A stretch of DNA of 64,000 nt from Eledone cirrhosa (lineage: Eukaryota), in assembly GCA_964016885.1 (NCBI GenBank), contig OZ024749.1, positions 620,001 to 684,000 on the forward strand, in the 5' to 3' direction. The notes beneath the pieces were generated by a model that had not been told where the DNA came from, searched no databases, and saw only the letters and a list, made by a program, of their open reading frames with translations. Position 1 is the stretch's first letter. The number at the start of each line of letters is the position of its first letter. Position numbers and translations under genes: made by a program. This document shows, in pieces, positions 1,127 through 61,522 of this stretch.

Positions 1127-2192
1127 AATAGAAGGGTTGACTCTTTACAAGGTCAATAAATAATAGAAGGGTCGACTCTACAATGTCAATAAATAATAGA
1201 AAGGTGACTCTACAATGTCAATAAATAATAGAAGGGTCGACTCTACAATAACAATAAATAATAGAAGCGTCAACTCTTTACAATGTCAATAAATAATAGA
1301 AGGGTCGACCCTACAATGTCAATAAATATTAGAAAGGCCGACTCTACAATGTCAATAAATAATAGGGTCGACTCTACAATGTCAATAAATAATAGAAGGC
1401 TAGACACTACAATGTCAATAAATAATAGAAGTGTCAACTCTTTACAATGTCAATAAATAATAGAAGGGCCAACTCTAAATTGTCAATAAATAATATAAGG
1501 GTCGACTCTACAATGTCAATAAATAATAGAAGGCCCGACTCTAAAATGTCAATAAATAATAGAAGGGTCAACTCTTTACAATGTCAATAAATAATAGAAG
1601 GGTCGACTCTACAATGTCAATAAATAATAGAAGGGTTGACTGTACAATGTCAATAATAGAAGGTTCGACTCTACAATGTCAATAAATAATAGAAGGGCCA
1701 ACTCTAAATTGTCAATAAATAATAGAAGGGTCAACTCTTTACAATGTCAATAAATAATAGAAGGGTTGACTCTACAATGTCAATAAATAATAGAAGGGTC
1801 GACTCTACAATGTCAATAAATAATAGAAGGGTCGACTCTTTACAATGTCAATAAATAATAGAAGGGTCGACTCTTTACAATGTCAATAAATAATAGAAAG
1901 GTTGACTCTACAATGTCAATAAATAATAGAAAGGTCAACTCTTTACAATGTCAATAAATAATAGAAGGGTCGACTCTACAATGTCAATAAATAATAGAAG
2001 GCTAAACTCTACAATGTCAATAAATAATAGAAGTGTCAACTCTTTACAATGTCAATAAATAATAGAAGGGCCAACTCTAAATTGTCAATAAATAATAGAA
2101 GGGTCGACTCTACAATGTCAATAAATAATAGAAGGGTCGACTCTACAATGTCAATAAATAATAGAAGGGTCGACTCTACAATGTCAATAAAT
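1127..2192. repeat. 33-bp minisatellite (AATAATAGAAGGGTCGACTCTACAATGTCAATA), ~32 copies, with 35-bp variants
   Basis: Direct tandem repeats. The ORF track shows an 11-aa period (MSINNRRVDST). Confidence 0.95.
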
Positions 2193-8807: not shown

Positions 8808-8865
8808 ATACTATGATCATTTCAATGACCGGGTTCCGTATGAATCCGGTGATATCATCAGGTTT
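8808..8865 (-). ncRNA. minimal type-I hammerhead ribozyme motif (family B)
   Basis: Reverse complement of the motif at 9070-9127, with one stem-I substitution. Confidence 0.55.
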
Positions 8866-9069
8866 TCGAAATATAACAAAGGAATATATAAAAATCCATG
8901 GGTCCGAAAATTAGAGACAGAGAGGACGACTGACCAACTAGCTGTTTTCACCTCGGTCAGTCGCCCTCAAGTTGGGGGCGACTGACCGAGGTGAAAACAG
9001 CTAGTTGGTCAGTCGTCTGCCTGATTTTCGGACCCATGGATTTTTATATATTCCTTTGTTATATTTCGA

Positions 9070-9127
9070 ATACCTGATGATATCACCGGATTCATACGGA
9101 ACCCGGTCATTGAAATGATCATAGTAT
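9070..9127 (+). ncRNA. minimal type-I hammerhead ribozyme motif (family B)
   Basis: ATAC-CTGATGA-[TATCACCGG...CCGGTCATT stem II]-GAAA-TGATCA-TA^GTAT. Stem III is palindromic and stem I is ATAC/GTAT. The base of stem II is imperfect. Confidence 0.65.
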
Positions 9128-11927: not shown

Positions 11928-12806
11928 CTGTAAGTACAACAGGCATAAGAATAATAATGGTTCATGATTTAGGCACAAACCCAACAATTTAGGGGGAAGA
12001 GAAAGTCAATTAAATTGACTACAGTCATTACTGGTACTTTATTTTATCGACCTCTTAAGGATGAAAGGCAAAGCTAACCTCAGCAGGATTTGAAATCAGT
12101 ACCTAACGAGTCGTAACTCTATGCTGAGATGCCCGACATTCACCCGATACTGGCAATCCACCGCCCTAGTTATGATAAAAATAATAAGAAGGCACAAGGT
12201 TAACATTTTCTGGGGAGAGGGGGGAGGGGGTTATTTTGACCGCAGTACAACCCTGGAAGGATTAAAAGTTGACCTTGAAATGATTTGAATATAAAGAACT
12301 TGTATAAATACTGCAATAGTATTTTATCCAGTGCTCTACCAATTTATGCCAATGAAATACTGAAACGAATCATTTCATACATGAAATTGTCAATAACATC
12401 TCCATCGTATTCCATTCTAAAGAAATTCATATTTCTATGGTAGCAATACTGTTGTTGATATAGTTCACACCTATATAGGTTTAGCTGGCCTCATATGAGG
12501 TTGCATGTCATAGGAGGTTTCTTGGGGGTTTCATTGATTGTAGCCCCACTCCATGTTTTTACAGCTCACACTCATGTAAATTTAGCTAGCCTCTTATGAA
12601 GTTGCATCTCATAATAGCTTTTAATGATTAACAAATCACAACATGAAATGAAGCATCTTGCACAAGAACACAATGTGCTACTCGGTTCAGGAATGGAGCC
12701 CACAACTTTATCATAAGTCCAACATCCTACCCTCTAAACCTTGCCCCTTCAGTTGAGGAAAGTCACAAAATAGAAAAAAAGAATTCAAGAAAGTGTATGT
12801 ACTTAC

Positions 12807-15800
12807 AGGTTTTTCTTCATCAAAATGAGGTTTTGAAATTTTTACAGCTTTTGACATCTCTTCAACTGATACCACCTTCTGTTTCTTACAACAGTTGCGG
12901 GTGGGATGAATGTAGCCATTCTTTCCAATGTTCTCCTTCTTTACCTCTTTTACCATTACTGATGTGTGGTCAACAGCATCCACTTCTATGGAATTCCTGC
13001 TACTACCACTATCAGAGTTCTCATCTCCTGAAACATCCTGTCTTTTGCAGCCCTTGCGGTGAGTGAAAATGAACTTCTTTCGACGTTTCTTCTTCATTCC
13101 CATCTGCCGAACCTCTTCTGGTTTCAAGCCCCGAAGGAGTCGAGCTTCAGTTCGCCAGTGAAGCTTTTGAAATTTACTGGAGTTTTTGTTCCGCGATGCT
13201 ATGCTTGTGCAATGGCCACTGTTGTTCCTGGTCCATCTTTTGTTTCTCGTGATCATCTGGAACCGGTTGGGTTTGAGGGATTTTCTATGGTTATTTCTTG
13301 TTGAGTTTTTCTGCTTAATCTTGAGCCATTCAGACCGTAGAAGCTTGCAATATCTTTTCAAACGCATGTGTAAGCCCCGTAGGTTCATGTTCTTGTCGAA
13401 GGCCGGCCTAGGAAACTTCTGCGCTTGCTGTGTTTCCTTCCAGCGATGAAAGTTGAGTATATTAGAAATACTTGACATGTGGCCAGCAGTAGATTCCCAT
13501 TTGTCGTTGCGTTCAACAGCAATATGAGCTTGGAGAGATTCCTCAGTGGGGAATGACATGAACAAGATGCCGTCAACTTCATCAAAGTCTGGTTCATACA
13601 GACTTGAAGTTCCCCAAGAGTATGATTTAGATTGGCTAGATTCTGGTAAATTGCTAGCTGAATCCATTTTACCGACATTAGGCTCAATTCGATGAAAGTT
13701 GTATGGTAAACTAAATGATTGCCCTGCCTTGTTTTTATTGAAGTTAGAATTAACACTATCATCCAGATAACTATTACATGCCATTGGTAAACTTTTAAAA
13801 TTATCACAGCTATGATTGTTTCCTACATTATCACTATAAACATCACTAGTATTATCAACATTATTAACAGCATTATCAACATTATCCTTAACATTAACAA
13901 CATGAAAATCAATATTATCTTTAGTAACATTATCAGTATTACCATTTGCAACATTATCAGTATTTTCATTAGCATTATTATTATTAACAATCTTATCACT
14001 ATCATGAACAACAACAGTATTACTACTACTACTGTGGCTACATCTACTTCTTGTATTATAACCAATGCCAGTTGTCTTTTGAGGAGTTCTCTCTTTTGAC
14101 TTTTTGGTTCCTTCGAAAGCATAAGTATTATCACAGAAAGGGGTTGTTTTAGCTGGTGAACAAAAGGGTCCATGCTTGGAAAGAATCCTTTTATTTCTAG
14201 AAATAGATGTATCTATATTTGAACTGACAGACTTAGTTTCTCCGGCAAGATACTTATTCAATTCGGTACTTACAAATGTGCCATCTTGTTTAGATATGGA
14301 TACTGCTTTTTCTGGTATTGATAAAATGCTAAGAGGCAATGGTTGTTTAATCACAGTGAAAGTGTTAATGGTTGAAGAAAAATTGATTGTTACAGAGGCA
14401 GTTGATGGTTGAGTCTGGCTGCTAGTGAAAGATGATGAGGCAGTGACAAGAGAATCAGGCTTACTTTCTGTTTTAAAATGACGGCAAGCTGATGCAGTAG
14501 TTGTATGATCAACTATTTTGTCTTCTCTGTCTTCAAAACTATGTGATTTATTCACTTGATGTGACTGTTGTGTTGCAGTTTTAAGTAGAGGTGCAGTTGC
14601 GAATGTTTTATGGCACTTGTCGCGTCCATCTTCGTTTTGTAAAGATGGTGAGATCTTATTTAGCAAATTCTTTCCATGATCTTCTGGCTTCTGTTTCAAA
14701 ACTATTTCCTTACCTACTACAGGTTTTTTATCTTCTACTTTGGTATCCTTCTCCAATTTAACTGGGGACTTATCCTCTAGTTTACATGTTGATCGTAACA
14801 CTTTCCTGCGATCTAAAGGTAAATTGGTAGTAGCTTTAGAATCTAGGGTGTGTTTCATTTGTTGTTTCAAAGTCTTTTGAGTTACCATTTTATCTGGTGC
14901 TTTCTTGTCTTTTTCTATATCTGACTGACATCGTCGATTATAGACTCTGGACTTCTTCACAATTTCACTCACTCTATTTGAAGCTGACTGAATTGAACGA
15001 CTAGGAAAAACTAATGGAAAAGACAAGACATCATCCTTGTAACGGATACTTGGTGAACGAATTCTGTTGCTTCTTGAAAACACTGGAATCGGTTTATTTG
15101 AAATGGTATTTTTCTGGTTTGAGGGTGGTGATGATGCTTTATTAGTTGAATTTGCTGTATTTTCTTGAGATCTGTGATGTTTTAAAGATGAAGAACTCTG
15201 TTTAGAATTCTTGGAAATTGGGTTCTCACATTTTTCTTCATCAAAAAACAATTTTTTAACTGTTTTCAGGTTTGTAGTTGTCTTTGCTCTACAAGAGTGC
15301 TGCTGTTGTTGTGGTGTTGGAGTTTTGACAGAGCTGCTATTGACTGTGCTATTGCAGTTATTTGGGATGTCGGCTGGACATTCACTTCCAGGAGAGGTGT
15401 CTATAACTATAACATCTTCCATGCACACCAAAGGCACCTTAGGACTTTCTGGGAATCGATGTAATGCCTCTGAAACATTCTTGAAGACAGGTGGACTTGG
15501 GAGGCTGCGATCTTTACCATCTTCTTTCACTTCACTAGCTGGCCAAATCATGTTATCATTCTCATAGTCTGAAGACATGAAACTTATCACAGAATGTTGG
15601 TCATATTGCAGTGACGCTTTGTTAGCACCTACTTCTTCAGGTGTCGAGCATTCAGATATTTTAGATGGAAATAAATTATAGCCGTTCACAGGCTGAATAA
15701 CAGAGCAGGAGGAACAACAATGAGATGAGAAAGAATTATTGGAGGAGTAGGCAGCAGTGGTGGTGGTTATAGGAGTGGTTGCTGTCATTGTGATGGTGGA

Positions 15801-17255
15801 AGTGGTGGTAATAGTACTAGTAGAAGTAGTGGTGGCAGAATTAAAGAACGGCTGGTCATTGTCCAGATACTGTTGAGATGGAGGAGCAGGAGGAGGTAGA
15901 AAATCAGTCGAGTTGTTCTTATACATCATATTATTCATAGCACTGCTACTACTATCACAGGTTAACAAGTTCCTTGATGTCTGGTTTGTGTGTAAATAGT
16001 TGACAGTTGACACATGGCCAGTTATGTGTTGGTGCTGGAGCTCCATGCTTCTTCTACAAGCCTTACAAAGCTGCTCTTGAAAAACACAATTATCAGAGAG
16101 GGATTGGTGAGTACAGTTCCACCTGTTTGGTTTCTCTACTTTAGGGATTAGCAGAGAGTTTGGAGACTTCTGATAGGAGCAACAGCCAGGATTTTTGTTC
16201 TGATGTTTAATTGATGGGAAAGTCTGGTGGCATGTGGTGTACTGCCAAATTTGGTATTTCTCAGAATAAAGCAGTTTTTCACTGTCCTCACTTTTAACTG
16301 CAATACAGCTACCCATTTGTTCATTTGCATTGTTATACATTAAATCATATATGTAAGCATTTGGGGCATTTTGAGGTTTTAAATGCATACTGTTGCCCCA
16401 GAATTTATTTCTCTGGGCCTCACTATGATGGTTGACATTTGATAAAGGTCGGTGTTGGCTCTTGTAAGAATTTCTCTGAAAAGTATTTGATTTGGGAAAC
16501 ATCACCTGACCTTGATACTTCATGTTTTGAGGAGAAAAATTGTTGCTGCATGACATGTCACGACAGCAAATATTTACCGAACTACCAAAAGGGACATTCT
16601 GACACGTGTTCATCGAACTATCACAATCTACATTCTGGCAACTACACAGTGAACCATCACAGTAGATGTCTTGACAAGCACTCATTGGACAGTCGCAATA
16701 TACAGCACCACATGTCCCTACAGGCCCAATACCATTTGCTGCTGCCACTGATGATGATGATGATGGTGCTAAATTGAGAAATTCGTTGCTACTCTTTGAA
16801 TTAGAATCCACCTGTAGCATATGGTTAGTCACTGAATTATTAATGTTATCACTGCCGCTGTTACTACTACTACTACTGCTGCTGCTGCTATTATTAGTCA
16901 TAGTAGTTGTAGTAGTAGTAGAAATAGTACTTGATTTCACTATAAATTCTGGACCTCTTTGAGTAGTGTTGCTAAACAAAGAGGAGTTAAATGAAGAGCT
17001 GTTGCTATAGGTGGGGCTGTTGCTAAATGAGGAGTTACTAAATGAAGTAGTGTTACTGAAAAGGGAGTTGTTCTGAGAGAAGACATGTGAACAACAGCAA
17101 CTATTAGACAAATTGTGGTGGAAATAATCTTCAACTGGTTCTTGTTTACTGGAAGTTCCTGAGAGTAAGACTGTGTTATCTTGATGTTGATGTTGTTGGT
17201 AGCTTTGTTGAAGATTTGTTTGGGGTAAAAGTACCATTTCATCATTCTCTAAGTT
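12807..17255 (-). CDS. giant 4449-bp exon of an uncharacterised, largely low-complexity, probably nuclear protein
   Basis: 1518-codon ORF with acceptor TTTTGGTTTTACAG before 17255 and donor CCT|GTAAGT after 12807, phase 0/0. It has S/T/N/Q-rich tracts, Cys-rich patches and a basic KKKRRKK NLS-like motif. Confidence 0.9.
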
Positions 17256-17319
17256 CTGTAAAACCAAAAGAAAATAAGTCTATGTTAATAAATTAGATGA
17301 AAATAGAAAAAAACTTTAA

Positions 17320-17565
17320 CCGTTTGGTTACTGTATTTCTAATGAAAGCCACTGCCAATGATTTTCAAATTATTTTGAAAATAAGTAAAGGGATTTACTA
17401 ATATAACTAATTTACTCATTATTTAGATGCTGTTTGAAGCATAAATTTAACAAACGTTCTCACATAAAATTATGAGGGAATTCTTTGCAGAAAAATATAA
17501 ACACTTTAAAACAGTTTTATATCAAAGAACCAGGAGCAGTTTCAGGTGGTTTGCTATAAAAAAGG
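17320..17565. mobile_element. decayed piggyBac-type MITE (second family)
   Basis: TTAA|CCGTTTGGTTAC ... AAAAAGG|TTAA. Related fragments occur near 60-238, 7210-7351, 25050-25290 and 52260-52490. Confidence 0.55.
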
Positions 17566-18249
17566 TTAAACTCTTCAGTGATACTGTCAATAGTTAATAA
17601 ATGTACAGATTATTATTAACATTAGTACTACAAGGCCAATCAAATAACCAATGACAGAGTAGAGTACTAGACAAACTACTTGGGATAAATCTAGTTACAT
17701 TGTCTCGCATTTTTACCTCAAATAATTCTGTTTTCCTTGGAACCACTTCAATGCGGTCTCAGGGTAAATTTAAACCCCTACATCATTAGAAGCACATCAA
17801 TGTCTGAAAGGTCATATATATGTTGTGTGTATGTTATACATATATATTGTTTCTAACATTGGCACAAGGCCAACAATGGGGTGGGGGGGGGGGTAAAGGG
17901 AAAGTTGATTGTATCAACCTCAGTACTTAACTGGTACTTGATTCTATTAACCCTGGAAAATATGGAAAGAGAAGTTGACCTCAGAACGTAAAAATCCGCG
18001 ACTAAATAATGCAAAGCATTTTGACCAACACTCTCCCAATACCTCACCAATTTATAGCAATAATGAATGGACAGTGTACACGTTATATATATATAATAAA
18101 ACAAGAGAAGGCCAGATTGGATTACGTTGAACCCAAACAAACAGAGAATGGAATCTAGGAGATAGAGAATAAATTATCTTCCATTCTATGTTTGGGTTTA
18201 ACGTAATCCTGTTACATAATTCTGAAAATAATCAGGTATATAATATATA

Positions 18250-18700
18250 TCATCATCATCTCTGTTTTACATCCATTCTTCCACGCTAGCATGGGTTAGA
18301 CGGGTTGTCTTGTTGTGCGCAGTGCCTGGTCGGCTGACCTTGTCTTGCACATACAGGAACTGATTCTGGTTTGATTTCTACAGCTGGTTGCCCTTCCTAA
18401 CACCAACATCATTTACAGTGAGTGCTGGGTGCTTTTTTTCCGTGGCGCCTACACAACCACTTTACAGTGTGGGCTGGGTGCTTTTTTGCCGTGGCACCTC
18501 CACAACCACTTTGCAGTGGGAGGGTGTGGGGGCATATTGTCTATATGCTTCATCTTCGGCTTGTTCCCATGGGAAGTCGGGTCTTCTGTATTACTGCGCG
18601 ACTCCAGAGGTCACAGTCGTGTGTCATCGCCTTTGAGAGGTGCAATTGGGTATGGTCGGCTTTTATCACCTCATCCCAGGTCTTCTTGGTCAACAACTTC
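18250..18700 (-). mobile_element. RTE LINE 3' fragment, close to the intact copy
   Basis: High similarity to 56150-56540, with one extra ~40-bp 3' UTR subrepeat. Confidence 0.9.
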
Positions 18701-19110
18701 CTGGCGAAACAGATCTCTTTGGATTTGTACGCGTGTGTTATATAGTTATAGAGGTGCGTATATACATTTTAATTTATATTTTTAATTATTGTATGCCTAC
18801 CCTGCCTTCCTTAGATTATAGATTCCATACACTGGTGGTTTTCCCTGTTTTATTGATGACACACTATCTCTCTCTAGTGTGTTACCTTTTCAACATATTG
18901 TATTTTAAAAAGCTCAGGATTCCTTTTCCTTTGAGCACATTATTGACAGGGAATAACGAGAGTCTATAGCTCCATTAATTTATCGTGATATAATATATAT
19001 ATATATATATATAAATGAAGTATTTCCATCAGGAAGGTACAGGAAAAAAGAGTGCTCTATGTAGGCTACAGAGCCTATTAGTTATGTAATAAACAATATA
19101 AGATAATTAT

Positions 19111-19171
19111 TTCATTTACCAGTGGTTTCTTGAAGACAGATGTTGTGTCTGTCTTCAGTCATCAGAATGAA
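19111..19171 (-). ncRNA. type-I hammerhead ribozyme motif (family C)
   Basis: Minus strand reads TTCATT-CTGATGA-C TGAAGACAGA cacaaca TCTGTCTTCA A-GAAA-CCACTGG-TA^AATGAA. Stem I is 6 bp, stem II is 10 bp, and stem III is short. Confidence 0.7.
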
Positions 19172-19499
19172 TAAAAAACATGGTGTTTTTATTAAATATG
19201 GATTTGAAAACAAAATTTATGAAATATGAAAGTGAGGCTGAAAAAAAAAAAAACGGGCGAAAAGGAAATAGGGGAAAAAAATAAAAAATATATATATAAA
19301 AATATAAATATCCAGAACATAAACATACACACACTCAACTACGCACATATACTAAGCGTATTTGCGTCTACATAGAAAAACGGACAGGAACATAAATACA
19401 TACACAGATATATATGCACTCAAAAATGTATACACAGATACAAGCAGTAGTTAGGAAGCAGGAGTAACTAAATAAATAAATGAGAACAAAAAAAAATAG

Positions 19500-19833
19500 A
19501 AGCTACTAAATAGTCGGTCGTCATCTTGTCTCTGATTTTCAGCCCCATGGATTTTATCTGTTTTATTTCTTTGTTATATTTTGAATACCTGATGATATCA
19601 CTGGATTCATACTGAACCCGGTCATTGAAATGATCATAGTATAATAAACCTTTCAAGGATTTACACCAGTCCAGCCTCCTGTTATTTTATAATAATTAAC
19701 TCCGTACTCGCACCACCAACTACACAAACGAAGACGGGTGAACTGCATTATGTTGAGTACTCTCCATAATATTACACCGAGATTGACCATACGGAATGAC
19801 CAGTTCTATCCAGTGGTGAACCAACAAACCTAA
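19500..19833 (+). mobile_element. solo Penelope-type terminal repeat, same family as 8613-9182
   Basis: Reverse complement of 8613-8940, ending at (TA)n. Confidence 0.75.
19585..19642 (+). ncRNA. minimal type-I hammerhead ribozyme motif (family B)
   Basis: ATAC-CTGATGA-TATCACTGG...CCGGTCATT-GAAA-TGATCA-TA^GTAT. Confidence 0.6.
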
Positions 19834-19913
19834 ATATATATATATATAAGAAAGTAAAAGTCAAAATCAAAAACAAAATAAAGTAAAAAAGGGGGGACGT
19901 GTTGACAACGATA

Positions 19914-20011
19914 CTACAGCTGAGTAAACTGGAGCAATGTGAAATAAAGTGTCTTGCTCAAGGAAACAACACATCACCCGGTCTGAGAATTGAACTCACA
20001 ACCATTCGCCT

Positions 20012-20013
<2 letters not shown>
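19914..20013 (-). mobile_element. partial copy of the CORE-like SINE
   Basis: Matches 580-670. Confidence 0.8.
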
Positions 20014-20055
<42 letters not shown>

Positions 20056-21129
20056 CACATATATACACACATATAATCATACATATATACACACGTACAT
20101 ACATACATATATATATACACGCATACATACGCACACACATATATAGATATATGTACACACACCTACATACGCACACACACAATTAATTATAAGAAAAAAT
20201 AATAATATAAAATAAAAATTAAAATAAAAAACAATGGACAACCATATGATACAAAAGGCCGTCACATCAAAATAAAAATAAAAAATAAAAACTATACGAC
20301 TTAAGAAAATAAAAATAAAAATTATTATAAAGTTGACAGCGATACAGGAAAGGACACATTCACACATATATATATATATATATATTATATAATATAGTAA
20401 TAATAATAAAATTTTGTTTCATTCTTTTCCATTTATCGTTTTCGGTGCGCCCGTAAATCGTTCCTGTGTCAGTGTTGAACAAAAGGGCGACGATGGTTGC
20501 CGAGCACTGTACGGCGTAATTCGGGCTGATTACAAATAAACCGAACATTATAATAAATGTTCGGTAAACCCATACGTACATATATATACGTGTGCATGTA
20601 TGTATATATATATACATACTACTGTGCGTCTGTACACATATATGTATGTACGTATACATTATTTATATATGTGTGTGTGTGTATATATATATTTGATATA
20701 TATTTATCTACAATTACATCTACTTGTTTATGATGTGTTATGTAATCTAAGATTATTATTTGTTATTACTATTATTTTTGTTACTATCAATAATGGTATC
20801 ACTGGTTATATTGGTGCCTATTTCGTTGGCGACTACTTGAGGATGGTATTATGGATACAGCATTGTTTGCGTTACATTAGTAGGTGTTGGGCTGGTTGCG
20901 CGTGCATTTTCAATATGACCAGTCGAGGAGATTATTACAGCCTGATGATTGCTTGATATTTCCTTTAGTTGACCTAAGTTAGGTGATATTCTGCAGGTTG
21001 AGTGTGTGTAGATAGTATTATTTATATGTTTTGGTTTACATTGTGAGTAATATTTGATGTAAGACTAGTTCCGTCTTTTTGTGGGGGGTGTTTTATCGGT
21101 GCATTTTCCACTATCCTACATTTATAGAA

Positions 21130-21300
21130 ATTCATTGAACTTAATTTTTGCTGTAGATTGATTGATGTTGAGTAAGAAAGTTTAACAGTAAAGCAGTTAA
21201 GGATTTGGTGATATTTATTGTTAGGTGGTAAGTGCTTATCTAAGATTGCAAAGAAATTTTTTAGGTATTTGTCCCTTAATCTGTATGTTGAAAGGTGTAC
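21130..21300 (-). pseudogene. Penelope-like RT thumb/linker remnant
   Basis: Hand translation with one frameshift gives PFNIQIKGQIPKKF/FAILDKHLPPNNKYHQILNCFTVKLSYSTSINL. This resembles the PLE motif PF..FL.L.DKHFP...KIFNRNTVK.SYS. Confidence 0.65.
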
Positions 21301-22131
21301 CTTTCAATTAATCTGATCCTTCAAAAGCGGATCTAGTATTTCCTCATTTTAATAATACTATTGACTTCCAAACTAATCAAAATAACTTACATTCTAACTA
21401 ACCAAATTAACTTAATGAAAATCATATTCTTCTATCTAAACTATAATAAATATTCAAAAACAATATTAAAATTTAAATACAACTCAAATTACTATGTATT
21501 AATATCAACTAACCTGAGATCATTTTAGCCTTGAAAATTTTATATCACTCAATATTTTCCCATATTGGAATTACAATCCACCTCTTCTATGACTTACAAA
21601 CCAAACAACCTATATAATTAGTACAAACTTCTTCCTCTATCCAAACTTTATTCCCAATCCTAAATCAACATTGGATCTGAAAAATAAATTATTTTCTTAC
21701 TATATATGTATTTATGTATACATATATAACCTTGATTAAGAAACAAGGCTTGCCTTCTGAATTGGGTTTTTATTAAATATTATTTATTGAACATTACTTT
21801 CTCAAGTTAGCAATACAGTAACCTATAAATTAATCTAATAGAGTGGTATGATAACCAAATGATTTCCGTATATCTAAATTAGAACACCCATGTAAAAACA
21901 GCTTTATTTATTATCAACCAAAAGCTTTACATCCCTCAATTAAGACATCTTCTCTCAGAAGTTTTATTACCACCTAGCACAAAGCACTCACCCATTTTAT
22001 GATCATCTTCTTCTTCTTCTAGCCCTCTTAGTCTACCTCTTCTTTTATCCCTCTAATTCTACCTCTTCTTCTGCTTCTTCATCCACTTACTCCTCAAAGT
22101 ATAGTGGGAGCAGGACACACACACACATACA

Positions 22132-24700
22132 CTAGCTGAATGACCCGGCATTGCCCGGGTTACTGCTGTTCTTATTCAGATTAGTAAACAATAAATATGA
22201 AGATATATTTTTGTCTCATAATTATTTCAAAATATCTATATTTTATTTTTAAATATCCAAATTGTAATGATAATAGAATTTAGAACTGAAAATCTGTCAA
22301 TCTTGAAGCACCTCAGAGTAAACAATATTCATTATGTAATTTTTGGTTCGTGTCCAAATGAATAAATTATTGCTGCTTCCAACTCGTAAGCAACCAACAT
22401 ATAGTTGGCCGTAGAAGAAGCATGTAGTAGAGAGATCAAGTCCAACTACCTTGAGGGATTGACCCTGAGATTTGTTAATTGAAATACCAAAACTTAGTTT
22501 GACTGGACACTGAAGCCTTTTAAATTTAAATGGAATAGCTGTAGGTATGAGAGGAATTTTTGGAATAAAGACATTTTCTCCTTTGTGACTGCCTGTTATA
22601 ATTGTTGCTTCTAGGACATGGGGCTTCATGGAAAGTAACAATTAAGTGAGTTCCATTACACAGGCTAGGTAGGTAAAGATTCCTAAGTAACATAATGGGA
22701 GCACACAGCTTTAGTGTCAGGTTATGTGGTGGCATCCAGTGGGTTTAAGTGTGTTCAGAAATTCAACAGAGGATTGAACAACCTGACCTTGATTGACTGA
22801 TGTGTGAGTTGATCGAAAAGTCATTTCTGACGTATGTGTTAACTTTTGAAGAAGTTCATGATCGAGTTCATCAATCATTTCATTAGTTGGATCCAGTATA
22901 ACTTTTTCACATAGCCAGTTTATATCAGTGTAATTGACAGATAAATTAGGAAATACTTTATCCATAAGATCATTAAGAGAAAGTACCATTCGATCACATG
23001 TAATTTCATGTAAGTGAATGTTAATATCTCATTACCAATCTTAAGAAGCTCCTCTCGGAATTCACCAGCTGTATGTTGCTTGTAAGATGAAGTTTTTTCA
23101 CATGTCTCCAAAGGTAGGATTTTTTTAAGCATGCATTGACCTCATCAGCTGTTGATCCTTTGGGGATAACTGGCAACATTTGACAGAAATCTCCTGCAAA
23201 AAGAACTGATACTCATCCTATGAGGCTGCTATTGTTTTTTATGTCTTAGAGGGTATGGTCAAATGCCTCTAGAGCTCCACGATGTGACATAGTGCACTCA
23301 TCCCAAACAATGAGGCAAGTTTGTTGGAGAATTGTTGCCATTGCAGAGCTTTTGGAAATGTTGCACATTTGAGATTCTTTCATTGTAAGGTTTAAAGCAG
23401 GCATGTCAAACATGTGGCCCGCGGACCGCACAAAGGCTATTACAGCACGAGCGTAATATAAAATAAAAAATATTAGTTGTAATGTGCACAATTAGTTGTC
23501 ATGTGTGGCCCTCAGACAACGCATGTGACCCATGTGGCCCTCGGAGAGCCTCAGTTTGACATGCCTGCTTTAGAAGGAGCTTGAACATGGAATGAGCCGT
23601 TCTTCCTCCATTGAGGAAGGTAGCTGCAATATCAGAAGATGCAACAACTAAGGAAATTTGATTCTAGTGGCGGACTGTAGCAAGAAGTAAATTCATTAGG
23701 AATGTCTTTCCTTACCACCAGGAACATTCAAAAGAAAACTCCCCCTCTTTCATGTTTGACTGCGTCAATGATTACATTATATGCATACCTTTGCAATTGT
23801 TGAAGCTTAGACTCATTTTCTGTGACAAACTGTGCCAGAACAACTAAATAGTAGGTAGTTTCTCAGAGAATTTCATGGCACAAATTTCGTTGTTGTCTGT
23901 TGGTAGATGGCAATCCATACTCATTTATAATGGAGTTTATTCTCAAATAATGAAGTTTATTCTCAAGCAGTATCAAAGTCTCATTGAGAATAGTCATTTA
24001 ATTGAAGGTCAAGGTTTGGATTTTCCCTTTGAGCACATTGAGAACATCCTCAATTAGTTCATGCTTGTGATTCTCCCATAGCTGTTTAGGATTGGACAGG
24101 TCACATGTGTCAAGCATTATTGCAAATAAATTCCTAAGCTGAGTGGGAGAACTTGAAACGCCAGCTTCAGTTAACTTGTCATCCCAGTGAGAATCATTTT
24201 CTAACAGTCCTTGTTTGAGATATGATTCACAATAAGTTTCACATAGTTGACCATCAACCATTCTCAGATCTTGAAAAGACTTTGGTTCTCTAACCACACG
24301 AAGTAACATGCAAAGAAAATAGCATTCAAAGTTGTTTGGATTGCAGTATAGACCTTTCCAAGTACATTATCTTTCTTAATTCCAGGCCATCCTTCAACAT
24401 ATCTCCCCCTTTCCCTCTTCTTCCACATCTTTTTAGTTTGAATCAATGTATAGAAATTTGGGACTTATTGGTAGAGTAATGTTGCAGCAAATGAGTCCTG
24501 ATTACAAGTTTTAAAGAAAGCAGTAAGTGTTGTTTCTGGAGGAGTTTGCATTTACTGCATGCTGGGTAGTTCCAGGATTGAAGATTACACACTGCCCGTT
24601 TTCTAAATGTACAGCAAGATGAACTATGTTGGATACCTTTCATGAATTGGAAAAGTGAAAAGTCTCCATGCTGCCAATATAGTGAGCCATCTGGTCACAT
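22132..24700 (-). mobile_element. decayed autonomous Helitron (RepHel, PIF1-like helicase pseudogene)
   Basis: Fragmented ORFs carry PIF1 motifs: IVWDECTM, PPHNLTLKLCAPIMLLRNL, RLQCPVKLSFGISINKSQGQSL and GQLYVG. The 3' terminus is CCCGGGCAATGCCGGG hairpin + CTAG|T at 22132. The 5' end was not found. Confidence 0.9.
23398..23567. mobile_element. hAT/Charlie-like MITE inserted in the Helitron helicase
   Basis: Perfect 14-bp TIR CAGGCATGTCAAAC/GTTTGACATGCCTG, subterminal TGTGGCCC repeats, and a degenerate 8-bp TSD GTTTAAAG/CTTTAGAA. Confidence 0.85.
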
Positions 24701-25292
24701 GCTTAGCTTTTCACCTCATTTTTTTTTTTTGTCAGTCACATATGTATATGTATGTGTAGGTGAGTGTGTGTCGCAAACACACGCATAGCTTTCCACCTCA
24801 TTTTTGCCAGTCGTCACATGTGTGTGTGTGTGCGCGCGCGTGCGTGCGTGTGTGTGTGTGTTTAATAACATACCTAACGAATGCGCAAACACAGACACAT
24901 TCATAGACAAAATGTGACGTCGTAGTCTGTGAAATGTAAAGCCACAGAAATGTTTTCAGTAAGCTTTCTGCCATGTGTTACCAATAGACAAATATCACAG
25001 CCCCCTCACACAACTCTCAGTGTCATGGCATCCTGTGTTAACCCTTTCATTACCTTATTTCTAATGAAAAACACTACATGTGGTTTTCAAATATTTTTGA
25101 CAATAACCAGCTCTCATCACTTCTGTCCAGGTCAGTCTCCCTCTACTGCAGCTTCCTCAGCTAACTAATGAAAAGCTGAGTTATTTCATTAAATTCCTCC
25201 AAATTGTTGGTGATTATTCAAAATTAATTGAAACACACAAGCAGTGTGTATTTCATGAGAAATATGGAAATAACAAAAATAGCAACACTTAC

Positions 25293-28623: not shown

Positions 28624-29386
28624 ACAATTTTGTTTATCTTTCTCTACTGATCTACCCTTAGTACTTACATAACTCTATATTTACACTGAGTTACAAAAAA
28701 TTTTTTTTTATAAATTGTCTAAGTTTTTTCAAATGATTTAGGACAATGTTGCACTGTTTAATCTGAAAATGACACCTGTTTCTCTCAATCAGGTTTTTGT
28801 GCTAAGCCTATTAAAAAAATATCCGATCTTCTGACTAAATTGATTACATTTTTGTAAATATTTCTCACCCGAAATAGGTTTTTAAGAGAACAAAAATTGT
28901 TTTCTAACATAATTCATTAATTAAAAGTTACAAAAATTGATTAGTATACATTGAATAGTAAAGATTGATGAAGGTGAATACAGTACTACAGTACATGTAA
29001 ATTGGATATTAGGTCATCACTGTTCAAATTTCATGGCTTGAGCTTCCGTTCCTTTGAACTGCTAGAATGCACAGTGGCAGGGATGTCTCTCTTCAGAGTC
29101 CAACAGTAATCAACCATCATCACTGCATCCCCGCATCCCTGATACCTGATCATTGTTTTAATGTTCATCTTCCACGCCAGCATGAGTAGGGCAACTGTAC
29201 TAACTATAATAATAATTCTTTTTAACAGGATCAGTTTCAAGATGTTTTGTATCAAAAGAGTGTAATATTTCTTGAAGACGTCTCATCTACATATTCACAG
29301 GTTCAGCACTAAACCAGCAAGTTTATATTTTACAACAGTCAATGTATGTATAAAGTATGTGATGTATATATGGCTATATAGGTGTG

Positions 29387-32300
29387 ACTGTGTGTGCTGT
29401 ATGGTGAGTTAGGTGACTGTGTAGTGTATGGTGTGTACTGTATGGTGTGTACTGTATGGTGTGTTAGGTAGGTGTGTACTGTATGGTGTGTTAGGTAGGT
29501 GTGTACTGTATGGTGAGTTAGGTGACTGTGTAGTATATGGTGTGTTAGGTAGGTGTGTACTGTATGGTGTGTTAGGTAGGTGTGTACTGTATGGTGGGTT
29601 AGGTAGGTGTGTACTGTATGGTGTGTTAGGTAGGTGTGTACTGTATGGTGTGTTAGGTAGGTGTGTACTGTATGGTGAGTTAGGTGACTGTGTAGTGTAT
29701 GGTGTGTTAGGTAGGTGTGTACTGTATGGTGAGTTATGTGACTGTGTAGTGTATGGTGTGTTAGGTAGGTGTGTACTGTATGGTGTGTTAGGTAGGTGTG
29801 TACTGTATGGTGAGTTAGGTGACTGTGTAGTGTATGGTGTGTTAGGTAGGTGTGTACTGTATGGTGTGTTAGGTAGGTGTGTACTGTATGGTGTGTTAGG
29901 TGACTGTGTAGTGTATGGTGTGTTAGGTAGGTGTGTACTGTATGGTGTGTTAGGTAGGTGTGTACTGTATGGTGAGTTAGGTGACTGTGTAGTGTATGGT
30001 GTGTTAGGTAGGTGTGTACTGTATGGTGTGTTAGGTAGGTGTGTACTGTATGGTGAGTTAGGTGACTGTGTAGTGTATGGTGTGTTAGGTAGGTGTGTAC
30101 TGTATGGTGTGTTAGGTAGGTGTGTACTGTATGGTGTGTTAGGTAGGTGTGTACTGTATGGTGAGTTAGGTGACTGTGTAGTATATGGTGTGTTAGGTAG
30201 GTGTGTACTGTATGGTGTGTTAGGTAGGTGTGTACTGTATGGTGAGTTAGGTGACTGTGTAGTGTATGGTGTGTTAGGTAGGTGTGTACTGTATGGTGAG
30301 TTAGGTGACTGTGTAGTGTATGGTGTGTTAGGTAGGTGTGTACTGTATGGTGAGTTAGGTGACTGTGTAGTGTATGGTGTGTTAGGTAGGTGTGTACTGT
30401 ATGGTGTGTTAGGTAGGTGTGTACTGTATGGTGAGTTAGGTGACTGTGTAGTGTATGGTGTGTTAGGTAGGTGTGTACTGTATGGTGTGTTAGGTAGGTG
30501 TGTACTGTATGGTGTGTTAGGTAGGTGTGTACTGTATGGTGAGTTAGGTGACTGTGTAGTGTATGGTGTGTTAGGTAGGTGTGTACTGTATGGTGGGTTA
30601 GGTAGGTGTGTAGTATATGGCGTGTTAGGTAGGTGTGTACTGTATGGTGAGTTAGGTAGGTGTGTACTGTATGGTGTGTACTGTATGGTGTGTTAGGTAG
30701 GCGTGTACTGTATGGTGAGTTAGGTGACTGTAGTGTATGGTGTGTTAGGTAGGTGTGTACTGTATGGTGTGTTAGGTAGGTATGTACTGTATGGTGTGTT
30801 AGGTAGGTGTGTACTGTATGGTGTGTTAGGTAGGTGTGTACTGTATGGTGTGTTAGGTAGGTGTGTACTGTATGGTGAGTTAGGTGACTGTGTAGTGTAT
30901 GGTGTGTTAGGTAGGTGTGTACTGTATGGTGTGTTAGGTAGGTGTGTACTGTATGGTGAGTTAGGTGACTGTGTACTGTATGGTGGGTTAGGTAGGTGTG
31001 TACTGTATGGTGGGTTAGGTAGGTGTGTACTGTATGGTGTGTTAGGTAGGTGTGTACTGTATGGTGTGTTAGGTAGGTGTGTACTGTATGGTGAGTTAGG
31101 TGACTGTGTAGTGTATGGTGTGTTAAGTAGGTGTGTACTGTATGGTGTGTTAGGTGACTGTGTAGTGTATGGTGTGTTAGGTAGGTGTGTACTGTATGGT
31201 GTGTTAGGTAGGTGTGTACCGTATGGTGTGTTAGGTAGGTGTGTACTGTATGGTGTGTTAGGTAGGTGTGTACTGTATGGTGAGTTAGGTGACTGTGTAG
31301 TGTATGGTGTGTTAGGTAGGTGTGTACTGTATGGTGAGTTAGGTGACTGTGTAGTGTATGGTGTGTTAGGTAGGTGTGTACTGTATGGTGTGTTAGGTAG
31401 GTGTGTACTGTATGGTGAGTTAGGTGACTGTGTACTGTATGGTGGGTTAGGTAGGTGTGTACTGTATGGTGTGTTAGGTAGGTGTGTACTGTATGGTGTG
31501 TTAGGTAGGTGTGTACTGTATGGTGAGTTAGGTGACTGTGTAGTGTATGGTGTGTTAGGTAGGTGTGTACTGTATGGTGAGTTAGGTGACTGTGTAGTGT
31601 ATGGTGTGTTAGGTAGGTGTGTACTGTATGGTGTGTTAGGTAGGTGTGTACTGTATGGTGAGTTAGGTGACTGTGTAGTATATGGTGTGTTAGGTAGGTG
31701 TGTACTGTATGGTGTGTTAGGTAGGTGTGTACTGTATGGTGAGTTAGGTGACTGTGTAGTGTATGGTGTGTTAGGTAGGTGTGTACTGTATGGTGTGTTA
31801 GGTAGGTGTGTACTGTATGGTGAGTTAGGTGACTGTGTAGTGTATGGTGGGTTAGGTAGGTGTGTACTGTATGGTGTGTTAGGTAGGTGTGTACTGTATG
31901 GTGTGTACTGTATGGTGTGTTAGGTAGGCGTGTACTGTATGGTGAGTTAGGTGACTGTAGTGTATGGTGTGTTAGGTAGGTGTGTACTGTATGGTGTGTT
32001 AGGTAGGTATGTACTGTATGGTGTGTTAGGTAGGTGTGTACTGTATGGTGTGTTAGGTAGGTGTGTACTGTATGGTGTGTTAGGTAGGTGTGTACTGTAT
32101 GGTGAGTTAGGTGACTGTGTAGTGTATGGTGTGTTAGGTAGGTGTGTACTGTATGGTGTGTTAGGTAGGTGTGTACTGTATGGTGAGTTAGGTGACTGTG
32201 TACTGTATGGTGGGTTAGGTAGGTGTGTACTGTATGGTGGGTTAGGTAGGTGTGTACTGTATGGTGTGTACTGTATGGTGTGTTAGGTAGGTGTGTACTG

Positions 32301-35300
32301 TATGGTGAGTTAGGTGACTGTGTAGTGTATGGTGTGTTAAGTAGGTGTGTACTGTATGGTGTGTTAGGTGACTGTGTAGTGTATGGTGTGTTAGGTAGGT
32401 GTGTACTGTATGGTGTGTTAGGTAGGTGTGTACCGTATGGTGTGTTAGGTAGGTGTGTACTGTATGGTGTGTTAGGTAGGTGTGTACTGTATGGTGAGTT
32501 AGGTGACTGTGTAGTGTATGGTGTGTTAGGTAGGTGTGTACTGTATGGTGAGTTAGGTGACTGTGTAGTGTATGGTGTGTTAGGTAGGTGTGTACTGTAT
32601 GGTGAGTTAGGTGACTGTGTACTGTATGGTGCGTTAGGTAGGTGTGTAGTGTATGGTGTGTTAGGTAGGTGTGTACTGTATGGTGTGTTAGGTAGGTGTG
32701 TACTGTATGGTGCGTTAGGTAGGTGTGTACTGTATGGTGAGTTAGGTGACTGTGTAGTGTATGGTGTGTTAGGTAGGTGTGTACTGTATGGTGAGTTAGG
32801 TGACTGTGTAGTGTATGGTGTGTTAGGTAGGTGTGTACTGTATGGTGTGTTAGGTAGGTGTGTACTGTATGGTGAGTTAGGTGACTGTGTACTGTATGGT
32901 GGGTTAGGTAGGTGTGTACTGTATGGTGTGTTAGGTAGGTGTGTACTGTATGGTGTGTTAGGTAGGTGTGTACTGTATGGTGAGTTAGGTGACTGTGTAG
33001 TGTATGGTGTGTTAGGTAGGTGTGTACTGTATGGTGAGTTAGGTGACTGTGTAGTGTATGGTGTGTTAGGTAGGTGTGTACTGTATGGTGTGTTAGGTAG
33101 GTGTGTACTGTATGGTGAGTTAGGTGACTGTGTACTGTATGGTGGGTTAGGTAGGTGTGTACTGTATGGTGTGTTAGGTAGGTGTGTACTGTATGGTGTG
33201 TTAGGTAGGTGTGTACTGTATGGTGAGTTAGGTGACTGTGTAGTGTATGGTGTGTTAGGTAGGTGTGTACTGTATGGTGAGTTAGGTGACTGTGTAGTGT
33301 ATGGTGTGTTAGGTAGGTGTGTACTGTATGGTGTGTTAGGTAGGTGTGTACTGTATGGTGAGTTAGGTGACTGTGTAGTATATGGTGTGTTAGGTAGGTG
33401 TGTACTGTATGGTGTGTTAGGTAGGTGTGTACTGTATGGTGAGTTAGGTGACTGTGTAGTGTATGGTGTGTTAGGTAGGTGTGTACTGTATGGTGTGTTA
33501 GGTAGGTGTGTACTGTATGGTGAGTTAGGTGACTGTGTAGTGTATGGTGGGTTAGGTAGGTGTGTACTGTATGGTGTGTTAGGTAGGTGTGTACTGTATG
33601 GTGTGTACTGTATGGTGTGTTAGGTAGGCGTGTACTGTATGGTGAGTTAGGTGACTGTAGTGTATGGTGTGTTAGGTAGGTGTGTACTGTATGGTGTGTT
33701 AGGTAGGTATGTACTGTATGGTGTGTTAGGTAGGTGTGTACTGTATGGTGTGTTAGGTAGGTGTGTACTGTATGGTGTGTTAGGTAGGTGTGTACTGTAT
33801 GGTGAGTTAGGTGACTGTGTAGTGTATGGTGTGTTAGGTAGGTGTGTACTGTATGGTGTGTTAGGTAGGTGTGTACTGTATGGTGAGTTAGGTGACTGTG
33901 TACTGTATGGTGGGTTAGGTAGGTGTGTACTGTATGGTGGGTTAGGTAGGTGTGTACTGTATGGTGTGTACTGTATGGTGTGTTAGGTAGGTGTGTACTG
34001 TATGGTGAGTTAGGTGACTGTGTAGTGTATGGTGTGTTAAGTAGGTGTGTACTGTATGGTGTGTTAGGTGACTGTGTAGTGTATGGTGTGTTAGGTAGGT
34101 GTGTACTGTATGGTGTGTTAGGTAGGTGTGTACCGTATGGTGTGTTAGGTAGGTGTGTACTGTATGGTGTGTTAGGTAGGTGTGTACTGTATGGTGAGTT
34201 AGGTGACTGTGTAGTGTATGGTGTGTTAGGTAGGTGTGTACTGTATGGTGAGTTAGGTGACTGTGTAGTGTATGGTGTGTTAGGTAGGTGTGTACTGTAT
34301 GGTGAGTTAGGTGACTGTGTACTGTATGGTGCGTTAGGTAGGTGTGTAGTGTATGGTGTGTTAGGTAGGTGTGTACTGTATGGTGTGTTAGGTAGGTGTG
34401 TACTGTATGGTGCGTTAGGTAGGTGTGTACTGTATGGTGAGTTAGGTGACTGTGTAGTGTATGGTGTGTTAGGTAGGTGTGTACTGTATGGTGAGTTAGG
34501 TGACTGTGTAGTGTATGGTGTGTTAGGTAGGTGTGTACTGTATGGTGTGTTAGGTAGGTGTGTACTGTATGGTGAGTTAGGTGACTGTGTACTGTATGGT
34601 GGGTTAGGTAGGTGTGTACTGTATGGTGTGTTAGGTAGGTGTGTACTGTATGGTGTGTTAGGTAGGTGTGTACTGTATGGTGAGTTAGGTGACTGTAGTG
34701 TATGGTGTGTTAAGTAGGTGTGTACTGTATGGTGTGTTAGGTGACTGTGTAGTGTATGGTGTGTTAGGTAGGTGTGTACTGTATGGGGTGTTAGGTAGGT
34801 GTGTACTGTATGGTGTGTTAGGTAGGTGTGTACTGTATGGTGTGTTAGGTAGGTGTGTACTGTATGGTGTGTTAGGTAGGTGTGTACTGTATGGTGAGTT
34901 AGGTGACTGTGTAGTGTATGGTGCGTTAGGTAGGTGTGTACTGTATGGTGTGTTAGGTAGGTGTGTAGTGTATGGTGTGTTAGGTAGGTGTGTACTGTAT
35001 GGTGTGTTAGGTAGGTGTGTACTGTATGGTGTGTTAGGTAGGTGTGTACTGTATGGTGTGTTAGGTAGGTGTGTACTGTATGGTGAGTTAGGTGACTGTG
35101 TAGTGTATGGTGTGTTAGGTAGGTGTGTACTGTATGGTGAGTTAGGTGACTGTGTAGTATATGGTGTGTTAGGTAGGTGTGTACTGTATGGTGAGTTAGG
35201 TGACTGTGTAGTATATGGTGTGTTAGGTAGGTGTGTACTGTATGGTGTGTTAGGTAGGTGTGTACTGTATGGTGAGTTAGGTGACTGTGTAGTGTATGGT

Positions 35301-38300
35301 GTGTTAGGTAGGTGTGTACTGTATGGTGAGTTAGGTGACTGTGTAGTGTATGGTGTGTTAGGTAGGTGTGTACTGTATGGTGTGTTAGGTAGGTGTGTAC
35401 TGTATGGTGAGTTAGGTGACTGTGTAGTGTATGGTGTGTTAGGTAGGTGTGTAGTGTATGGTGTGTTAGGTAGGTGTGTACTGTATGGTGGGTTAGGTAG
35501 GTGTGTAGTATATGGTGTATTAGGTAGGTGTGTACTGTATGGTGAGTTAGGTGACTGTGTAGTGTAGGTGTGTACTGTATGGTGTGTTAGGTAGGTGTGT
35601 AGTATATGGTGTGTTAGGTAGGTATGTACTGTATGGTGTGTTAGGTAGGTGTGTACTGTATGGTGTGTTAGGTAGGTGTGTACTGTATGGTGTGTTAGGT
35701 AGGTGTGTACTGTATGGTGAGTTAGGTGACTGTGTACTGTATGGTGGGTTAGGTAGGTGTGTACTGTATGGTGTGTTAGGTAGGTGTGTACTGTATGGTG
35801 AGTTAGGTGACTGTGTAGTGCATGGTGTGTTAGGTAGGTGTGTACTGTATGGTGAGTAAGGTGACTGTGTAGTGTATGGTGTGTTAGGTAGGTGTGTACT
35901 GTATGGTGTGTACTGTATGGTGAGCTAGGTGACTGTGTACTGTATGGTGGGTTAGGTAGGTGTGTACTGTATGGTGTGTTAGGTAGGTGTGTACTGTATG
36001 GTGTGTTAGGTAGGTGTGTACTGTATGGTGAGTTAGGTGACTGTGTAGTGTATGGTGTGTTAGGTAGGTGTGTACTGTATGGTGAGTTAGGTGACTGTGT
36101 AGTGTATGGTGTGTTAGGTAGGTGTGTACTGTATGGTGTGTTAGGTAGGTGTGTACTGTATGGTGAGTTAGGTGACTGTGTAGTATATGGTGTGTTAGGT
36201 AGGTGTGTACTGTATGGTGTGTTAGGTAGGTGTGTACTGTATGGTGAGTTAGGTGACTGTGTAGTGTATGGTGTGTTAGGTAGGTGTGTACTGTATGGTG
36301 AGTTAGGTGACTGTGTAGTGTATGGTGGGTTAGGTAGGTGTGTACTGTATGGTGTGTTAGGTAGGTGTGTACTGTATGGTGTGTACTGTATGGTGTGTAC
36401 TGTATGGTGTGTTAGGTAGGCGTGTACTGTATGGTGAGTTAGGTGACTGTAGTGTATGGTGTGTTAGGTAGGTGTGTACTGTATGGTGTGTTAGGTAGGT
36501 ATGTACTGTATGGTGTGTTAGGTGACTGTGTAGTGTATGGTGTGTTAGGTAGGTGTGTACTGTATGGTGTGTTAGGAGGTGTGTACTGTATGGTGAGTTA
36601 GGTGACTGTGTAGTGTATGGTGTGTTAGGTAGGTGTGTACTGTATGGTGTGTTAGGTAGGTGTGTACTGTATGGTGAGTTAGGTGACTGTGTACTGTATG
36701 GTGGGTTAGGTAGGTGTGTACTGTATGGTGTGTTAGGTAGGTGTGTACTGTATGGTGTGTTAGGTAGGTGTGTACTGTATGGTGAGTTAGGTGACTGTGT
36801 AGTGTATGGTGTGTTAGGTAGGTGTGTACTGTATGGTGAGTTAGGTGACTGTGTAGTGTATGGTGTGTTAGGTAGGTGTGTACTGTATGGTGTGTTAGGT
36901 AGGTGTGTACTGTATGGTGAGTTAGGTGACTGTGTAGTATATGGTGTGTTAGGTAGGTGTGTACTGTATGGTGTGTTAGGTAGGTGTGTACTGTATGGTG
37001 AGTTAGGTGACTGTGTAGTGTATGGTGTGTTAGGTAGGTGTGTACTGTATGGTGAGTTAGGTGACTGTGTAGTGTATGGTGGGTTAGGTAGGTGTGTACT
37101 GTATGGTGTGTTAGGTAGGTGTGTACTGTATGGTGTGTACTGTATGGTGTGTTAGGTAGGCGTGTACTGTATGGTGAGTTAGGTGACTGTAGTGTATGGT
37201 GTGTTAGGTAGGTGTGTACTGTATGGTGTGTTAGGTAGGTATGTACTGTATGGTGTGTTAGGTAGGTGTGTACTGTATGGTGTGTTAGGTAGGTGTGTAC
37301 TGTATGGTGTGTTAGGTAGGTGTGTACTGTATGGTGAGTTAGGTGACTGTGTAGTGTATGGTGTGTTAGGTAGGTGTGTACTGTATGGTGTGTTAGGTAG
37401 GTGTGTACTGTATGGTGAGTTAGGTGACTGTGTACTGTATGGTGGGTTAGGTAGGTGTGTACTGTATGGTGGGTTAGGTAGGTGTGTACTGTATGGTGTG
37501 TTAGGTAGGTGTGTACTGTATGGTGTGTTAGGTAGGTGTGTACTGTATGGTGAGTTAGGTGACTGTGTAGTGTATGGTGTGTTAAGTAGGTGTGTACTGT
37601 ATGGTGTGTTAGGTGACTGTGTAGTGTATGGTGTGTTAGGTAGGTGTGTACTGTATGGTGTGTTAGGTAGGTGTGTACCGTATGGTGTGTTAGGTAGGTG
37701 TGTACTGTATGGTGTGTTAGGTAGGTGTGTACTGTATGGTGAGTTAGGTGACTGTGTAGTGTATGGTGTGTTAGGTAGGTGTGTACTGTATGGTGAGTTA
37801 GGTGACTGTGTAGTGTATGGTGTGTTAGGTAGGTGTGTACTGTATGGTGAGTTAGGTGACTGTGTACTGTATGGTGCGTTAGGTAGGTGTGTAGTGTATG
37901 GTGTGTTAGGTAGGTGTGTACTGTATGGTGTGTTAGGTAGGTGTGTACTGTATGGTGTGTTAGGTAGGTGTGTACTGTATGGTGAGTTAGGTGACTGTGT
38001 AGTGTATGGTGTGTTAGGTAGGTGTGTACTGTATGGTGAGTTAGGTGACTGTGTAGTGTATGGTGTGTTAGGTAGGTGTGTACTGTATGGTGTGTTAGGT
38101 AGGTGTGTACTGTATGGTGAGTTAGGTGACTGTGTACTGTATGGTGGGTTAGGTAGGTGTGTACTGTATGGTGTGTTAGGTAGGTGTGTACTGTATGGTG
38201 TGTTAGGTAGGTGTGTACTGTATGGTGAGTTAGGTGACTGTAGTGTATGGTGTGTTAAGTAGGTGTGTACTGTATGGTGTGTTAGGTGACTGTGTAGTGT

Positions 38301-61461: not shown

Positions 61462-61522
61462 TATTTTATCTGATGAGAGCATACCAAAATTTTGGTACCC
61501 TTGAAATATATATAAAAAAATA
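61462..61522 (+). ncRNA. minimal type-I hammerhead ribozyme (family A) in the 3' pLTR
   Basis: TATTTTAT-CTGATGA-GAGCATACCAAAATTTTGGTACCCTT-GAAA-TATATA-TA^AAAAAATA. Confidence 0.78.

Follow-up and report, generated by a model that had tools for sequence, protein, structure and literature searches.

Background

The ultraconserved intronic hammerheads of the amniote genes C10orf118 and RECK are single-copy motifs that are conserved across species and possess canonical cores and loop contacts. They are of type I and lie on the sense strand of introns, as does the motif described here, but the latter is one among thousands of young repeat copies. The C10orf118 hammerhead is named in PMC3088659. 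Metazoan PLEs have a second set of type I motifs, termed minimal hammerheads (Cervera and de la Pena 2014, PMC4209133), which resides in pseudo-LTRs (pLTRs) and resembles our motif in having a long helix II and a palindromic helix III predicted to need dimers, and also in that most copies are solo and truncated, with some inverted pairs 100-700 bp apart. As a monomer the Schistosoma PLE hammerhead gave no detectable cleavage, and its dimers cleaved little (PMC4209133); the ribozyme of an anole PLE requires the protein of the element for cleavage (PMC11167929). Among PLEs, the Hydra clade is defined by RWK and DKT motifs, a CxCX5C linker, the lack of CCHH, a CxxC/CxH arrangement and (TA)n targets (PMC8557442).

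We investigated a hammerhead-like motif in a 64-kb stretch of DNA from Eledone cirrhosa (hereafter the window), which a first-pass annotation had taken for a PLE relic that could cleave host pre-mRNA. We present evidence that this motif is very probably the pLTR hammerhead of a Hydra-clade PLE, inserted in 5'-truncated form into a TA repeat, and that such a lone copy would probably cut the host pre-mRNA only rarely and without effect on splicing.

Results and discussion

A hammerhead motif in a predicted host intron

The motif occupies 19111..19171 on the minus strand and is of type I, with an open stem I and three helices of 6, 10 and 3 bp. Read on that strand, stem I (19171-19166 paired with 19116-19111, 6 bp) encloses CUGAUGA at 19165-19159, C10.1 at 19158, a 10-bp stem II (19157-19148 with 19140-19131) capped by a 7-nt loop, A11.1 at 19130, GAAA at 19129-19126, CCACUGG at 19125-19119, U16.1 at 19118 and A17 at 19117. 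The core is complete (C3 U4 G5 A6 N7 G8 A9, G12 A13 A14, A15.1-U16.1 and H17), and cleavage is predicted after A17, at 19117/19116, with GUA as the cut triplet. Stem III is a 9-nt near-palindrome (ACCA-C-UGGU) that forms 3 bp in the monomer fold. The full core, the 6-bp stem I, the 10-bp stem II and the CCACTGG stretch that had been claimed were all recovered at 19171-19111 (-). A canonical 10.1-11.1 pair, usually G-C, is absent, and a symmetric 1x1 C·A mismatch stands in its place. Since this closure is family-wide, as detailed below, we file the putative ribozyme as a PLE-type variant rather than as a canonical hammerhead.

A relaxed descriptor of the motif has a single match in the window, with any match being found in 3 of 200 block-shuffled windows, and with the observed stem lengths none of 200 such windows matched. 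No hammerhead family was matched in an Rfam scan of the whole window at E<=10.

The surrounding intron is predicted at 17256..25292 (-), spanning 8,037 nt with GT...AG ends; its donor GT at 25292 follows an exon at 25610-25293 (-), its acceptor AG lies at 17256, and the phase is 0 on both sides. Downstream lies a giant exon (12711..17255, -) within a 1,522-aa stop-to-stop frame (12711-17279), for which a set of 1,137 candidates contained 6 homologous proteins, including a bivalve one, with 35-58% identity over the searched part; the frame itself has no Pfam match. The open frame, its homologues and the splice signals together suggest a host gene on the minus strand, and exon, splice signals and frame agree with the earlier placement of the motif on the sense strand of an 8-kb intron upstream of the giant exon. 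As the bivalve homologue (P0005) contains an MGA_dom at 1378-1423, outside the matched part, the host gene may be related to MGA. Elsewhere in the window, 29300-44000 is occupied by a tandem repeat of about 15 kb, whose GC skew is extreme (about +0.82) and whose minus strand has long open frames.

A high-copy family linked to a PLE open reading frame

A 24-mer from the motif has 3,665 exact matches in its own genome (1,838 on the plus and 1,827 on the minus strand, showing no bias between strands), as against none for the reversed control. A 171-nt query yielded 2,169 candidates in the same genome, and the 40 that were scored gave 42 matches at 94-97%, the window itself excluded. The first-pass annotation had regarded a lack of related copies with covarying stems as telling against its reading; more than 3,600 copies exist, and stem II shows compensatory changes among them. 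Downstream of the motif the family sequence stops sharply after about 100 nt, in TA or CA repeats, and upstream it fades over about 500 nt. The 3' ends of 96 sampled copies are of two kinds, 49 being short and 47 long. The 500-bp size and the microsatellite end had suggested a SINE origin, which is ruled out by linkage to an ORF.

Several loci carry an inverted fragment of a PLE ORF just upstream of the hammerhead region. We fetched 20 loci containing the linked ORF. In 8 of them a common microsatellite-rich UTR of 1.2-4.2 kb connects the ORF to a hammerhead region that lies downstream and in the same sense; the other 12 have no downstream same-sense hammerhead in the fetched stretch, with 4 of the 20 having none at all there. 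In three loci (L034, L036 and L041) the hammerhead region and its tail continue directly into the 5' UTR and ATG. One of these, L041, is near full-length: its ORF is flanked by two same-sense hammerheads separated by 4,781 nt, and A17 lies 213 nt before the ATG. In tandem copies, the tail of about 66 nt likewise leads over to the following unit, into its 5' UTR. Of the traits of EN+ PLEs, a partial pLTR-ORF-pLTR tandem, inverted 5'-truncated copies and an optional tail are present. The earlier notion of a PLE relic is supported and gains in precision: what remains here is the 3' part of a Hydra-clade PLE, truncated on its 5' side.

The relatives contain collinear pieces of a single ORF with an RT and, at its C terminus, a GIY-YIG, every copy seen being interrupted. 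Pfam returned no PLE protein match for 8 window frames and a frame of L043, and no match for the C-terminal 326 aa of the PLE ORF. Its motifs comprise RWK, DKT, YRDD, CSCRKPEEC and CxxC..E..N..CxH, and CCHH is absent. RWK occurs in L036, L041, L044 and L047, and DKT in the same four and in L034; the L026 frame combines the CxCX5C linker (also seen in L003 and L004) with the lack of CCHH and with CxxC and CxH around a conserved E and N. Judged by eye, the family sequence gives way at its 3' ends to TA or CA/TA tracts, in keeping with (TA)n insertion. Because the ORF motifs fit the definition in PMC8557442, we assign the linked ORF, on motifs and target class, to a putative Hydra-clade PLE. The Neptune, Nematis and Poseidon clades were ruled out, as CCHH is absent and the linker is of the CxCX5C form. 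The distance between the L041 hammerheads exceeds the length of less than 3 kb given for the Hydra clade, this being a descriptive trait, inflated here by simple repeats and nested insertions.

In many of the fetched loci PLEs of several families lie close together. For instance, a Hydra copy in L031 has as its neighbour, about 1.5 kb away, a 398-aa frame of Neptune type at 520-1713 (-) with RT thumb, CxxxxCxxC linker and GIY-YIG. Our literature searches showed no description of the present family, which may already be catalogued in Repbase, Dfam or the repeat library of PMC13282606. The main text of PMC13282606, in the portion consulted, mentions neither ribozymes nor Hydra elements.

The window copy and its neighbours

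The window copy is a 3' part alone, from about 20180 to 19012, and the PLE ORF is absent from it. Matches to the family delimit its hammerhead-bearing 3' pLTR at 19012..19493 (-), which has the long 3' end and abuts a (TA)n tract at 18990..19011 (no strand), the target class of Hydra PLEs (PMC8557442). The optional tail of about 66 nt, which separates the short from the long 3' ends in the sampled copies, corresponds to 19013..19078 (-). A remnant of the microsatellite-rich 3' UTR follows upstream at 19831..20180 (-), 68-85% similar to other copies and broken by a piece of an unrelated repeat at 19914-20008; its far end marks an approximate 5' truncation point. Between the two is nested an unrelated hammerhead-bearing element at 19494..19830 (+), antisense to the host gene, with its core at 19589-19630 and approximate bounds taken from the gap in the matches. 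The 64-kb window holds no second copy of the motif's family. From the commonest letters of its closest relatives the window copy differs at 9 of 218 columns, the mean being 5.8, and so shows no sign of special preservation.

Several other repeats adjoin it. At 18870-19010 a further repeat, 87% similar to a piece inserted in L045, borders the TA tract into which the window copy runs on its 3' side, and a decayed remnant resembling a PLE RT thumb and linker by eye lies at about 21100-21300 (-) in the same intron. The nested hammerhead belongs to a family with U·U closure and a perfectly palindromic stem III, represented at 8820-8861 (-), 9074-9115 (+) and 19589-19630 (+), with the first two forming a head-to-head inverted pair around a hairpin at 8914-9028. 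Another Hydra-like PLE, with G·U closure and an AT-palindromic stem III, has hammerheads at 56696-56732 (-) and 61470-61506 (+) and between them a broken ORF (57030-59670, +) with RWR and DKT, such that one hammerhead is downstream in the same sense and the other upstream and inverted; the span of the ORF also contains a piggyBac-like piece. Next to it, at 53134-56293 (+), is a LINE, likely of RTE type, with endonuclease and RT domains split over several frames. The statement that the motif shares nothing outside the core with "families A and B", which we took to mean the two other hammerhead types in the window, holds on comparison by eye.

The stem II closure is inherited

A11.1 is found in 3,665 of 3,714 copies, and only 7 of the 49 non-A copies have C11.1; among 18 copies without C at 10.1, G occurs in 1. 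These figures rule out copy-specific decay of a G-C pair. The 30 closest copies all have the C·A closure or nearly so. The C·A closure is the normal state of the source element and not decay of the window copy. The mismatch described in the first-pass annotation stands, as a state inherited family-wide, and might reduce activity, as was suggested there.

To follow variation in the stem we used copies anchored by the downstream flank alone, taken from the first places on contig 1. Of 96 distinct copies 69 could be parsed, the remaining 27 being left out on account of truncation, inverted junctions, deletions or membership of a sister subfamily with a longer stem. The commonest closure among the 69 is C·A, seen in 40; A·A follows with 21 and U-A with 6, leaving 2 of other kinds. 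Stem II pairs 10.6, 10.7 and 10.10 alternate between A-U and G-C (45 A-U and 19 G-C at 10.6; 41 G-C and 15 A-U at 10.7). Watson-Crick pairing holds in 440 of 483 cells, whereas shuffling gave 396 on average and 418 at most; as this control ignores kinship, the covariation amounts to about four independent events and not 69. U11.1 marks a sister group for which there are 1,132 exact matches, being present in 95 of the 100 listed.

Using a filter that favoured intact cores, we sorted 147 of 161 copies into four subfamilies, leaving out 14. Closure is C·A or A·A in S1, to which the window copy belongs, C·A, A·A or U-A in S2, C·U or G·U in S3 and A-U or G·U in S4. At pair 10.2, S1 and S2 share U-A, and C-G is found in the other two. 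The majority core letters vary between subfamilies only at N7 and loop III, with 0 of 12 core columns variable, an invariance partly built in by the filter. Variation is almost equally scarce in the 26 nt downstream (1 of 26 columns), partly because they served as the search anchor. S4 has three consecutive pyrimidine mismatches in stem II, which indicates that this stem is not strictly held.

These data bear on whether the C·A closure abolished catalysis in the source elements, the fold then being kept as a landmark for protein binding or reverse transcription, or simply drifting. This account is compatible with PLE identity, and several points speak for it: after 15.1-16.1, the 10.1-11.1 pair is the most conserved, and mismatches other than U·U are less active (PMC3088659); from one subfamily to another the closure shifts between the forms C·A, A·A, U-A, C·U, G·U or A-U; and ribozyme activity is dispensable for insertion in vitro (PMC11167929). 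We nevertheless consider it rather unlikely, for the core varies only at the tolerant N7 and loop III and the stem II changes between subfamilies are mostly compensatory, both under the intact-core filter, and unpaired closures recur in Hydra elements of several phyla. File S2 of PMC8557442 has U·U in most Hydra magnipapillata elements; C·A (ctgatgac ... agaa) is listed there for PLE-X1_cBra from Chara braunii. U·U is the best tolerated 10.1-11.1 mismatch and is present in active natural hammerheads (PMC3088659). We found no cleavage rate for a C·A closure in the literature, PMC11300833 and PMC2837043 being silent on it in the sections consulted. One core string has 7 matches in the supplement of PMC8557442, and neither of the 2 viewed lies within a hammerhead.

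Folding and a possible role in the source element

In predictions on the isolated 61-mer, which folds almost as a hammerhead, stem I has a probability of 0.55 and stem III of 0.65. With 20-100 nt of flank on each side (101-261 nt, three contexts) these values drop to at most 0.06 and at most 0.15, respectively; co-transcriptional folding could favour the hammerhead in context. The predicted energy of a dimer is -37.8 kcal/mol, as against -28.8 for two monomers, and the 9-nt near-palindrome in stem III likewise predicts a dimeric ribozyme.

We propose that a transcript of the pLTR-ORF-pLTR tandem would carry two same-sense hammerheads about 4.8 kb apart, which could exchange their near-palindromic stem III strands to form a dimer, probably aided by the RT-endonuclease protein of the element. 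Cutting after A17 would then trim the precursor to unit length, placing its 5' end 213 nt before the ATG; this last step is modelled on PMC4209133. The anole PLE makes such a processing role appear doubtful, given that mutants of its ribozyme left insertion in vitro unaffected and that no reads ended at the cut site (PMC11167929). The two genomic 3' ends of that element match two start sites of reverse transcription (PMC11167929), a result that would fit the short and long 3' ends seen here.

Consequences for the host transcript

The window copy might act as a cis ribozyme that lowers or alters host output, alone or in trans with another copy or the RNP of the element. Its core is intact, its triplet is GUA, it is in sense orientation, the minimum-energy fold of the bare motif is near the active one, the genome offers thousands of compatible stem III partners, and a closure of the U·U kind is compatible with activity in natural hammerheads (PMC3088659). 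Against this stand the competing folds in context, the absence of a partner in the window, the inactivity of the Schistosoma monomer (PMC4209133), the protein dependence of the anole ribozyme (PMC11167929) and the 9 column differences noted above, so that we hold it very unlikely. Since the copy is solo, the probabilities of stems I and III are low in context and the metazoan PLE hammerheads cited were inactive as monomers or needed protein, host pre-mRNA cleavage by this putative ribozyme seems weakly supported, and an effect on the host is unlikely. With thousands of copies in the genome, many would be expected to fall in sense introns by chance. In work cited by PMC2995048, slow hammerhead cleavage within an intron reportedly left splicing intact, while a fast HDV ribozyme is said to have blocked it; by analogy even a slow cut of the host intron would probably not matter.

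A more far-reaching proposal, that this is an active C·A-closure lineage whose solo copies, including the intronic one, cut in trans through stem III pairing with element transcripts or RNP, with PLE expression thereby trimming host pre-mRNAs genome-wide, we regard as highly improbable. Finally, derivation from a non-autonomous retrozyme (tandem monomers of 150-400 nt with circular RNA) instead of a PLE proper is scarcely credible: the type I fold with its weak palindromic stem III, the large number of copies and the lack of an ORF in most of them would suit it, and retrozymes have been proposed to derive from PLE pLTRs (bioRxiv 10.64898/2026.07.22.740005), but it fails on the collinearity of the motif with the PLE ORF, and in addition the window copy is a monomer, close pairs are mostly head-to-head inverted, as is typical of PLE 5' inversions, and no short direct tandem array was noticed (as distinct from counted) in the fetched loci.

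Conclusions

As the pLTR hammerhead of a 5'-truncated Hydra-clade PLE, the single locus is an ordinary transposon end, one among thousands, and carries little weight alone. A hammerhead in a PLE pLTR is of a known kind, represented here by a high-copy Hydra-clade family. The value of this family is modest: its four subfamilies form a natural series at the closure (G·U or A-U, C·U, C·A, A·A) while the rest of the scaffold is matched, so that both the tolerance at 10.1-11.1 and the role of PLE hammerheads can be tested directly. With its high copy number, long UTR and intact pLTR layout it is also a further Hydra family in a cephalopod, where the one described element is listed without a pLTR.

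Compared by eye, the closest described system is the Hydra clade with its member Hydra-1_Obim (PMC8557442), which shares the C-terminal GIY-YIG, the lack of CCHH, the CxCX5C linker, RWK, DKT and the (TA)n target, as well as a sense hammerhead near the 3' end. In both elements stem III consists of four pairs around one central base (acca-a-tggt in Obim and acca-c-tggt here), and the unpaired or wobble closure common in the clade takes the form of G·U in Obim and C·A here (PMC8557442). The present family is set apart by the length of its unit, about 4.8 kb in L041 including a long 3' UTR rich in microsatellites, whereas members of the clade generally measure less than 3 kb and Obim 2,507 bp, by different stems I and II and by a tail of 66 nt as against 30-40 nt (PMC8557442). 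In the metazoan PLE hammerheads of PMC4209133 a base is bulged out after A9 and the G10.1-C11.1 pair is conserved, where ours has a 1x1 mismatch and no G-C form. PLE-X1_cBra offers the same combination of a PLE hammerhead with C·A closure, but is an unrelated plant PLE that lacks an endonuclease and has a stem II of 6 bp (PMC8557442).
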